Source of the DNA: Escherichia coli
GTDB taxonomy: Bacteria; Pseudomonadota; Gammaproteobacteria; Enterobacterales; Enterobacteriaceae
Length of the DNA: 64,000 nucleotides
Assembly (NCBI RefSeq): GCF_003018255.1
Contig: NZ_CP027440.1
Reading direction: 5' to 3' (one strand)
Shown here: positions 27,001 through 30,000 of the stretch, in pieces
Layout: each line of letters starts with the position of its first letter
Position numbering within the stretch: the stretch's first letter is position 1
Made by a program: the position numbers

Positions 27001-30000
27001 TGCCAGGGCAACTAATGTGAAAAGTACCAGCGATCTGTTCAATGAAATTATTCCATTGGGTCGCTTAATCCATATGGTTAATCAGAAGAAAGATCGCCTG
27101 CTTAACGAGTATCTGTCTCCGCTGGATATTACCGCGGCACAGTTTAAGGTGCTCTGCTCTATCCGCTGCGCGGCGTGTATTACTCCGGTTGAACTGAAAA
27201 AGGTATTGTCGGTCGACCTGGGGGCGCTGACCCGTATGCTGGATCGCCTGGTCTGTAAAGGCTGGGTGGAAAGGTTGCCGAACCCGAATGACAAGCGCGG
27301 CGTACTGGTAAAACTTACCACCAGCGGCGCGGCAATATGTGAACAATGCCATCAATTAGTTGGCCAGGACCTGCATCAAGAATTAACAAAAAACCTGACG
27401 GCGGACGAAGTGGCAACACTTGAGCATTTGCTTAAGAAAGTCCTGCCGTAAACAAAAAAAGAGGTATGACGATGTCCAGACGCAATACTGACGCTATTAC
27501 CATTCATAGCATTTTGGACTGGATCGAGGACAACCTGGAATCGCCACTGTCACTGGAGAAAGTGTCAGAGCGTTCGGGTTACTCCAAATGGCACCTGCAA
27601 CGGATGTTTAAAAAAGAAACCGGTCATTCATTAGGCCAATACATCCGCAGCCGTAAGATGACGGAAATCGCGCAAAAGCTGAAGGAAAGTAACGAGCCGA
27701 TACTCTATCTGGCAGAACGATATGGCTTCGAGTCGCAACAAACTCTGACCCGAACCTTCAAAAATTACTTTGATGTTCCGCCACATAAATACCGGATGAC
27801 CAATATGCAGGGTGAATCGCGCTTTTTACATCCATTAAATCATTACAACAACTAGTTGATAACGTGACAACGTCACTGAGGCAATCATGAAACCACTTTT
27901 ATCCGCAATAGCAACTGCGCTTATTCTCTTTTCTGCGCAGGGCGTTGCGGAACAAACCACGCAGCCGGTTGTTACTTCCTGTGGCAATGTCGTGGTTGTT
28001 CCCACATCGCAGGAACAACCACCGTTTGATTTAAATCACATGGGTACTGGCAGTGATAAGTCGGATGCGCTCGGCGTGCCCTATTATAATCAACACGCTA
28101 TGTAGTTTGTTCTGGCCCCGACATATCGGGGCTTATTAACTTCCCACTTTTACCGCTTTACGCCACCGCAAGCCAAATACATTGATATACAGCCCGGTCA
28201 TAATGAGCACCGCACCGAAAAATTGTAGACCCGTTAAGCGTTCATCCAATAATAGTGCCGCACTTGCCAGTCCTACTACGGGCACCAGTAACGATAACGG
28301 TGCAACCCGCCAGGTTTCATAGCGTCCCAGTAACGTCCCCCAGATCCCATAACCAACAATTGTCGCCACAAACGCCAGATACATCAGAGACAAGATGGTG
28401 GTCATATCGATAGTAACCAGACTGTGAATCATGGTTGCGGAACCATCGAGAATCAGCGAGGCAACAAAGAAGGGAATGATTGGGATTAATGCGCTCCAGA
28501 TTACCAGCGACATCACCGCCGGGCGCGTTGAGTGCGACATGATCTTTTTATTGAAGATGTTGCCACACGCCCAACTAAATGCTGCCGCCAGGGTCAACAT
28601 AAAGCCGAGCATCGCCACATGCTGACCGTTCAGACTATCTTCGATTAACACCAGTACGCCAAAAATCGCTAAGGCGATCCCCGCCAATTGTTTGCCATGC
28701 AGTCGCTCCCCGAAAGTAAACGCGCCAAGCACGATAGTAAAAAACGCCTGTGCCTGTAACACCAGCGAAGCCAGTCCAGCAGGCATACCAAAGTTAATGG
28801 CGCAAAACAGAAAGGCAAACTGCGCAAAACTGATGGTTAATCCATACCCCAGCAGCAAATTCAGTGGTACTTTCGGTCGAGCGACAAAAAAGATGGCCGG
28901 AAAAGCGACCAGCATAAAGCGCAAACCGGCCAGCATCAGCGGTGGCATGTTATGAAGCCCCACTTTGATGACCACAAAATTCAGCCCCCATACGACCACT
29001 ACCAGTAGCGCCAACACCCCATCTTTTCGCGACATTATACCGCCTCTGAATTTCATCTTTTGTAAGCAATCAACTTAGCTGAATTTACTTTTCTTTAACA
29101 GTCGATTCGTTAGTCACCGTTTACGACGGCATTAATGCGCAAATAAGTCGCTATACTTCGGATTTTTGCCATGCTATTTCTTTACATCTCTAAAACAAAA
29201 CATAACGAAACGCACTGCCGGACAGACAAATGAACTTATCCCTACGACGCTCTACCAGCGCCCTTCTTGCCTCGTCGTTGTTATTAACCATTGGACGCGG
29301 CGCTACGCTGCCGTTTATGACCATTTACTTGAGTCGCCAGTACAACCTGAGTGTCGATCTAATCGGTTATGCGATGACAATTGCGCTCACTATTGGCGTC
29401 GTTTTTAGCCTCGGTTTTGGTATCCTGGCGGATAAGTTCGACAAGAAACGCTATATGTTACTGGCAATTACCGCCTTCGCCAGCGGTTTTATTGCCATTC
29501 CTTTAGTGAATAACGTGACGCTGGTGGTGCTCTTTTTTGCCCTCATTAACTGCGCCTATTCCGTTTTTGCTACCGTGTTGAAAGCCTGGTTTGCCGACAA
29601 TCTTTCGTCCACCAGCAAAACGAAAATCTTCTCAATCAACTACACCATGCTCAACATTGGCTGGACCATCGGTCCGCCGCTCGGCACGTTGTTGGTGATG
29701 CAGAGCATCAATCTGCCCTTTTGGCTGGCAGCTATCTGTTCCGCGTTTCCCATGCTTTTCATTCAAATTTGGGTAAAGCGCAACGAGAAAATCATCGCCA
29801 CGGAAACAGGCAGTGCCTGGTCGCCGAAAGTTTTATTACAAGATAAAGCACTGTTGTGGTTTACCTGCTCTGGTTTTCTGGCTTCCTTTGTTAGCGGCGC
29901 ATTTGCCTCGTGCATTTCACAATATGTGATGGTGATTGCTGATGGTGATTTTGCCGAAAAGGTGGTTGCGGTTGTTCTTCCGGTTAATGCTGCCATGGTA

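Follow-up and report, generated by a model that had tools for sequence, protein, structure and literature searches.

The mar operon of this Escherichia coli genome departs from that of K-12 in both the repressor MarR and the activator MarA, which raises the question of whether these substitutions are resistance mutations or natural polymorphisms carried by a lineage other than K-12, as the original prediction had proposed. Using a base-by-base comparison with K-12, allele counts in complete genomes, the states found in related species and published phenotype surveys, we conclude that the window (the whole stretch of 64,000 nucleotides of DNA that was analysed) very probably carries a functional wild-type mar switch with three known, neutral lineage polymorphisms. 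The three variants are already known as common natural polymorphisms.

The mar locus compared with K-12

The window was compared base by base and gene by gene with the annotated MG1655 sequence (NC_000913.3, 1616000-1622500). Five nucleotides of marR differ from MG1655, two of them protein-changing (G103S at 27323 and Y137H at 27425), and three of marA, one of them protein-changing (S127N at 27851). The full-length comparison revealed no further amino-acid difference from MG1655 in either protein, and marR is free of frameshifts, internal stops and deletions. The substitutions named in the original prediction for MarR and MarA are thus the sole ones, MG1655 having a different residue at each of the three sites, and the peptide strings quoted for the two proteins were all found in the window as given. 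The features of the locus are as follows.

24925-26115, + strand: ydeA/sotB; 26 nucleotide differences from K-12, no amino-acid change
26140-26805, - strand: marC, the divergent neighbour; protein as in K-12, 18 synonymous differences
26806-27016: marC-marR intergenic region (marO)
26918-26937, + strand: sequence GATTTAGCAAAACGTGGCAT, 5' of the -35 hexamer; identical to K-12
26954-26982, + strand: marRAB promoter; -35 TTGACT at 26954-26959, 17-nt spacer, -10 TATTAT at 26977-26982
26962-26976, + strand: MarR operator palindrome site I, TACTTGCCTGGGCAA, between the -35 and -10 hexamers; identical to K-12
26997-27011, + strand: MarR operator palindrome site II, TACTTGCCAGGGCAA, just 5' of the marR GTG; identical to K-12
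27017-27451, + strand: marR; 144 aa, GTG start, full length and intact (from the ORF list)
27323-27325, + strand: MarR codon 103; AGC (Ser) here, GGC (Gly) in K-12
27425-27427, + strand: MarR codon 137; CAT (His) here, TAT (Tyr) in K-12
27472-27855, + strand: marA; 127 aa (the RefSeq form), full length and intact (from the ORF list and the K-12 annotation)
27850-27852, + strand: MarA codon 127, the C-terminal residue; AAC (Asn) here, AGC (Ser) in K-12
27887-28105, + strand: marB; 72 aa, full length, eight nucleotide differences from K-12
28136-29035, - strand: eamA; 14 nucleotide differences from K-12, with M102V and L273F

Two numberings are in use for MarA, since the ORF list also contains an in-frame upstream ATG at 27466 that yields a 129-aa form; S127N in the 127-aa numbering corresponds to S129N in PDB 1BL0, whose numbering is that of the 129-aa form. 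For eamA, likewise, the listed ORF begins at an ATG further upstream, at 29056, and codes for 306 aa where the annotation has 299 aa.

All three products of the operon are confidently assigned to their families. MarR matches the NCBIfam equivalog NF008565 with 320.1 bits (cutoff 240), its residues 1-144 aligning with profile positions 1-144, and PF01047 with 66.6 bits over residues 38-96, the winged-helix (wHTH) core. MarA scores 294.1 bits against the equivalog NF008564 (cutoff 202) and 288.5 bits against the equivalog NF012198 (cutoff 250), with HTH_18 (PF12833) covering residues 32-108 and HTH_AraC matched in two stretches, and MarB scores 140 bits against the equivalog NF007508 (cutoff 87). 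In the AF2 model of MarR (pLDDT 84), helices at 14-36, 40-48, 57-64, 68-80, 102-124 and 129-142 and wing strands at 84-89 and 92-100 compose a wHTH flanked by N- and C-terminal helices. Residue 103 belongs to the opening turn of helix 102-124, after the wing, and residue 137 in the last, C-terminal helix (129-142); both are outside the winged-helix DNA-binding core. Residue 127 of MarA is the final residue of a tail whose sequence varies between genera and lies outside every profile, the NCBIfam MarA_TF profile stopping at residue 124.

The regulatory DNA upstream of marR retains the elements of the K-12 switch. The promoter scan scored the marRAB promoter at 10 of 12 consensus matches, with both hexamers identical to K-12, and the palindrome TACTTGCCNGGGCAA has exactly two matches in the window (26962-26976 and 26997-27011), where chance alone would give 0.02. 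We take GATTTAGCAAAACGTGGCAT at 26918-26937 to be the putative marbox of this promoter, the site of autoactivation by MarA, SoxS and Rob. The marC-marR intergenic region contains five SNPs relative to K-12, among them a C>T change at 26986 (+ strand) that lies in the spacer separating the two MarR palindromes, 4 nt 3' of the -10 hexamer. This T is rare: of 5405 E. coli records, 74 contain its exact 61-mer, and many of these come from poultry or APEC strains (O78:H4 APEC, APEC O2-211, CT30, D10); this group, with its many poultry/APEC O78:H4 strains, may correspond to phylogroup G/ST117. Further downstream, the spacer between marR and marA has one extra A in its poly-A run, at 27454 (+ strand), giving A7 here against A6 in K-12. 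The run, a small hypervariable homopolymer, sits just upstream of the marA Shine-Dalgarno sequence; in other strains it reads A8, has a G inserted in it or shows a T.

We considered a Mar-constitutive mutant and rejected it, because marR is full length with the two common substitutions alone and both the palindromes and the hexamers are unchanged. As far as can be read from the sequence, the genotype appears to be without any sign of a constitutive Mar phenotype.

Within the operon, marB is by far the fastest-evolving gene. Its product differs from K-12 at five of 72 residues (S5L, A10T, A33G, P40T and H44Q), and T40 (28004) is shared neither with any of the seven comparator genomes nor with the Escherichia outgroups.

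Allele frequencies and ancestral states

To assess how common the three variants are, we matched short-mers with the SNP at their centre to 5,426 complete E. coli genomes, the band at or above 99% consisting of exact matches only. S103 is present in 4134 of about 5414 matched records (~76%) and G103 in 1186 (~22%), these short-mer counts being lower bounds, with about 1.7% of codon-103 records falling outside the counts of both alleles. The S103 total combines 3007 records with the window-type 61-mer and 1127 with a variant 61-mer that carries a synonymous T>C change 17 nt downstream, as in O104:H4; with the window-type 61-mer as the sole query for S103, about 1,220 codon-103 records had fallen to neither allele, for which the T>C form accounts. 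At codon 137, H137 is found in 4192 and Y137 in 1184 of about 5416 matched records (~77% and ~22%). For MarA, 877 of 5071 matched records have N127 and 3924 have S127, placing N127 at ~16-17%, with about 5% of matched records outside both counts and about 355 genomes without a seed in the search.

The nearly equal counts of G103 and Y137 indicate tight linkage between the two MarR sites. A large protein collection contains all four combinations, the two main MarR forms on at least 1000 contigs each and the mixed haplotypes more rarely (G103/H137 on 758 contigs, S103/Y137 on 515). Among the genomes that we fetched, the states at MarR 103, MarR 137 and MarA 127 are G/Y/S in K-12, OW1E2 and AR_0011, S/H/S in O104:H4, NZRM4169, PE164 and CT30, and S/H/N in 200164 and DA33135; N127 thus sits on the S103/H137 background. 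N127 is presumably found mainly in phylogroup B2, in line with the CFT073 name attached to this protein. A published survey of 280 isolates reported MarR substitutions in 75.7%, mostly G103S/Y137H, and MarA substitutions in 12.1%, mostly S127N and always together with MarR substitutions (PMC7082582), fractions that are close to the present genome counts.

Such counts also bear on whether the differences could have arisen as sequencing or assembly errors, a reading whose probability we regard as negligible. Thousands of independent genome sequences, all complete, share these alleles, and the 1330-nt marRAB segment is matched at 100% identity by two of the 5,426 genomes, the independently determined 200164 (Mali, stool) and E04, the next best match being at 99.1%. 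Together, the allele counts and these exact matches rule out such an error.

The direction of change was read from a scan with one genome per species, which returned 80 MarR loci. S103/H137 is the state of MarR in all five of the other Escherichia lineages sampled (E. whittamii, Escherichia sp. E1V33, Escherichia sp. MOD1-EC7003, E. albertii and a divergent 'E. coli' GTDB representative), and MarA ends in Ser in all five, N127 occurring in none. Since the outgroups uniformly have S103/H137, the G103/Y137 of K-12 is derived and the state in the window ancestral; since the outgroup MarA tails all end in Ser, the N127 of the window is derived in turn. MarR S103/H137 is thus the ancestral majority state and the K-12 form a derived minority. 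Because S103/H137 is the majority, its presence says merely that a strain is not among the ~22% with K-12-like haplotypes, and MarA N127 is the sole derived, lineage-informative allele of the three. In MarB, the window keeps the ancestral L5, T10, G33 and Q44, with the derived residues at these four positions on the K-12 side, and T40 alone is derived in the window.

The proposal that the MarR variants point to a lineage other than K-12 is therefore upheld in one part and inverted in another. The window shares 97.6% identity with MG1655 over 5.6 kb around mar (98.2% over marRAB), so that 'non-K-12' is correct, but the direction of the substitutions is the reverse of that implied by naming them after K-12: the apparent MarR mutation is a peculiarity of K-12 itself, with S103/H137 present in about three-quarters of E. 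coli.

Across 69 unique MarR orthologues from Enterobacteriaceae, aligned over 144 columns, 77 of the 144 columns are invariant, and columns 103 (S/H/D/E/G) and 137 (H/Y/L/S) rank as the third and sixth most variable; Gly at position 103 is restricted to the K-12-like sequence.

Consequences for repression and resistance

MarR S103/H137 is the Escherichia state kept by most E. coli, from which K-12 and its relatives have departed, and MarA N127 is a derived change in the last residue of an unstructured tail, carried by about one-sixth of E. coli. In our reading, MarR would still dimerise, bind the two unchanged marO palindromes and repress the operon until released by an inducer such as salicylate or Cu(II), and MarA would still activate the mar regulon, including acrAB-tolC. 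We infer the functional neutrality of the three variants from population genetics combined with published phenotype surveys. In those surveys, G103S with Y137H are the commonest MarR substitutions and S127N the commonest in MarA, and they show no association with levofloxacin MIC (PMC4317672, PMC7082582, PMC8597741, PMC11753663); G103S/Y137H are also found in fully susceptible isolates, with repressor activity unaffected. The view that these are natural polymorphisms and not resistance mutations, advanced in the original prediction, is accordingly borne out by allele frequencies and the published surveys alike.

The opposing view is that G103S and Y137H weaken repression by MarR, leading to over-expression of MarA and AcrAB-TolC and hence to low-level multidrug resistance (Mar). 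It draws on papers stating that the two substitutions are known to raise expression of marRAB or AcrAB (PMC11504656, PMC7546912), on their frequent occurrence in resistant clinical isolates (PMC5177599) and on what some resistome annotations imply. A form that is carried by ~76-77% of E. coli and is ancestral in Escherichia is, however, expected by default in most resistant isolates. It is carried, moreover, by isolates with levofloxacin MICs from 0.016 to 16 µg/mL without significant association (PMC4317672), and by a parental strain susceptible to Tet and Chl (PMC11753663), while the sites themselves are highly variable and outside the wHTH core. We therefore consider weakened repression very unlikely, and read the efflux claims of PMC11504656 and PMC7546912 as reference bias because of the allele frequencies and the polarity. 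Genome reports, these two among them, have repeatedly counted G103S/Y137H among the determinants of resistance, which calls for caution against such bias.

A subtler possibility is that the variants are not strictly neutral but fine-tune the mar response to the lineage, for example by changing how sensitive MarR is to inducer or how stable MarA is, in co-evolution with the fast-changing MarB. Protein-level change is concentrated in the regulators: non-synonymous changes make up two of five differences in marR, one of three in marA and five of eight in marB, against none of 18 in marC and none of 26 in ydeA; six derived residues lie on the K-12 side (MarR G103 and Y137; MarB S5, A10, A33 and H44); and MarA substitutions always accompany MarR ones (PMC7082582). 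Set against this, the numbers of changes are very small, rapid evolution of MarB is seen in every lineage, and the origin of N127 on the common S103/H137 background suffices to explain the co-occurrence. The literature reports no phenotype of this kind for the variants, and we regard fine tuning as improbable.

We thus favour a working wild-type switch carrying neutral polymorphisms, whose biological weight is little; for annotation of the window, the point of substance is that genotypic evidence for a Mar phenotype with up-regulated efflux is absent. The broader meaning concerns the reference protein. Structural and biochemical work on MarR has nearly all been done on the K-12 protein, that is, on the derived minority allele of ~22% of E. 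coli, and every PDB chain of MarR (3VOE, 3VOD, 5H3R, 1JGS, 4JBA, 3VB2) and of MarA (1BL0, 1XS9) has the K-12 residues at these sites. MarR of the window shares 98.6% of its residues with the solved structures 3VOE and 1JGS, and MarA is identical to 1BL0 at 126 of 127 residues. There is a slim chance that MarR S103/H137 differs measurably from K-12 MarR in operator affinity or inducer sensitivity, in which case the parameters given in textbooks for the mar switch would not hold for most natural E. coli. There is also a slim chance that the rare SNP at 26986 shifts basal mar expression in this lineage.

Lineage of the locus and likeness to known systems

Over 25 kb, the best matches among the 5,426 complete genomes are CT30, EC12, EC31 and D10 at 99.1%, with 75 records at or above 99%; the phylogroup F strains SMS-3-5 and ST648 reach 98.5% and 98.3%, respectively. 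No Clermont markers were found within the window.

The locus is a mosaic. The window is identical to CT30, which has S127, over 26795-27584, a stretch that takes in marO, marR and the 5' part of marA, and then accumulates 13 differences up to 28125. DA33135, which has N127, shows the reverse pattern, with nine differences up to 27454 and five after it, and the 3' part of marA together with marB is closer to N127 genomes such as DA33135. This distribution points to an apparent recombination breakpoint within the operon, between 27455 and 27585.

Upstream of the operon, yneK persists as a remnant at about 24664-24765, roughly 1 kb that is found in K-12 and 200164 being absent between window positions 24748 and 24758. 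CT30 has the same deletion, and yneK is annotated there as an incomplete pseudogene.

The searches returned a few records of separate concern. SMXE01000224.1, labelled 'MAG: Caldithrix sp.', contains a K-12-type E. coli marRAB (MarR G103/Y137), and CACSKA010000003.1, labelled 'Chryseobacterium sp. 18061', contains an Enterobacteriaceae MarR; both are probably contaminated or mislabelled public assemblies. Among complete E. coli genomes, marRAB gave five matches on plasmid records, and one genome has three copies.

At the protein level, the window reproduces forms that are already on record. Its MarR is WP_000843419.1, the common S103/H137 protein shared by O104:H4 2011C-3493, NZRM4169, CT30, DA33135 and 200164, from which its DNA differs synonymously alone; the marR of DA33135, for instance, differs at six synonymous sites. 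Its MarA is WP_000091198.1, the N127 protein of strains 200164 and DA33135, which ends in NHYNN; the 129-aa form of this protein is named from CFT073, which also has N127. Against its closest counterpart, the marRAB operon of MG1655 (b1530-b1532; MarR P27245, MarA P0ACH5), the window has the same gene lengths and start codons and the same gene order of ydeA, marC, marO, marR, marA, marB and eamA, with 142 of 144 residues identical in MarR and 126 of 127 in MarA.
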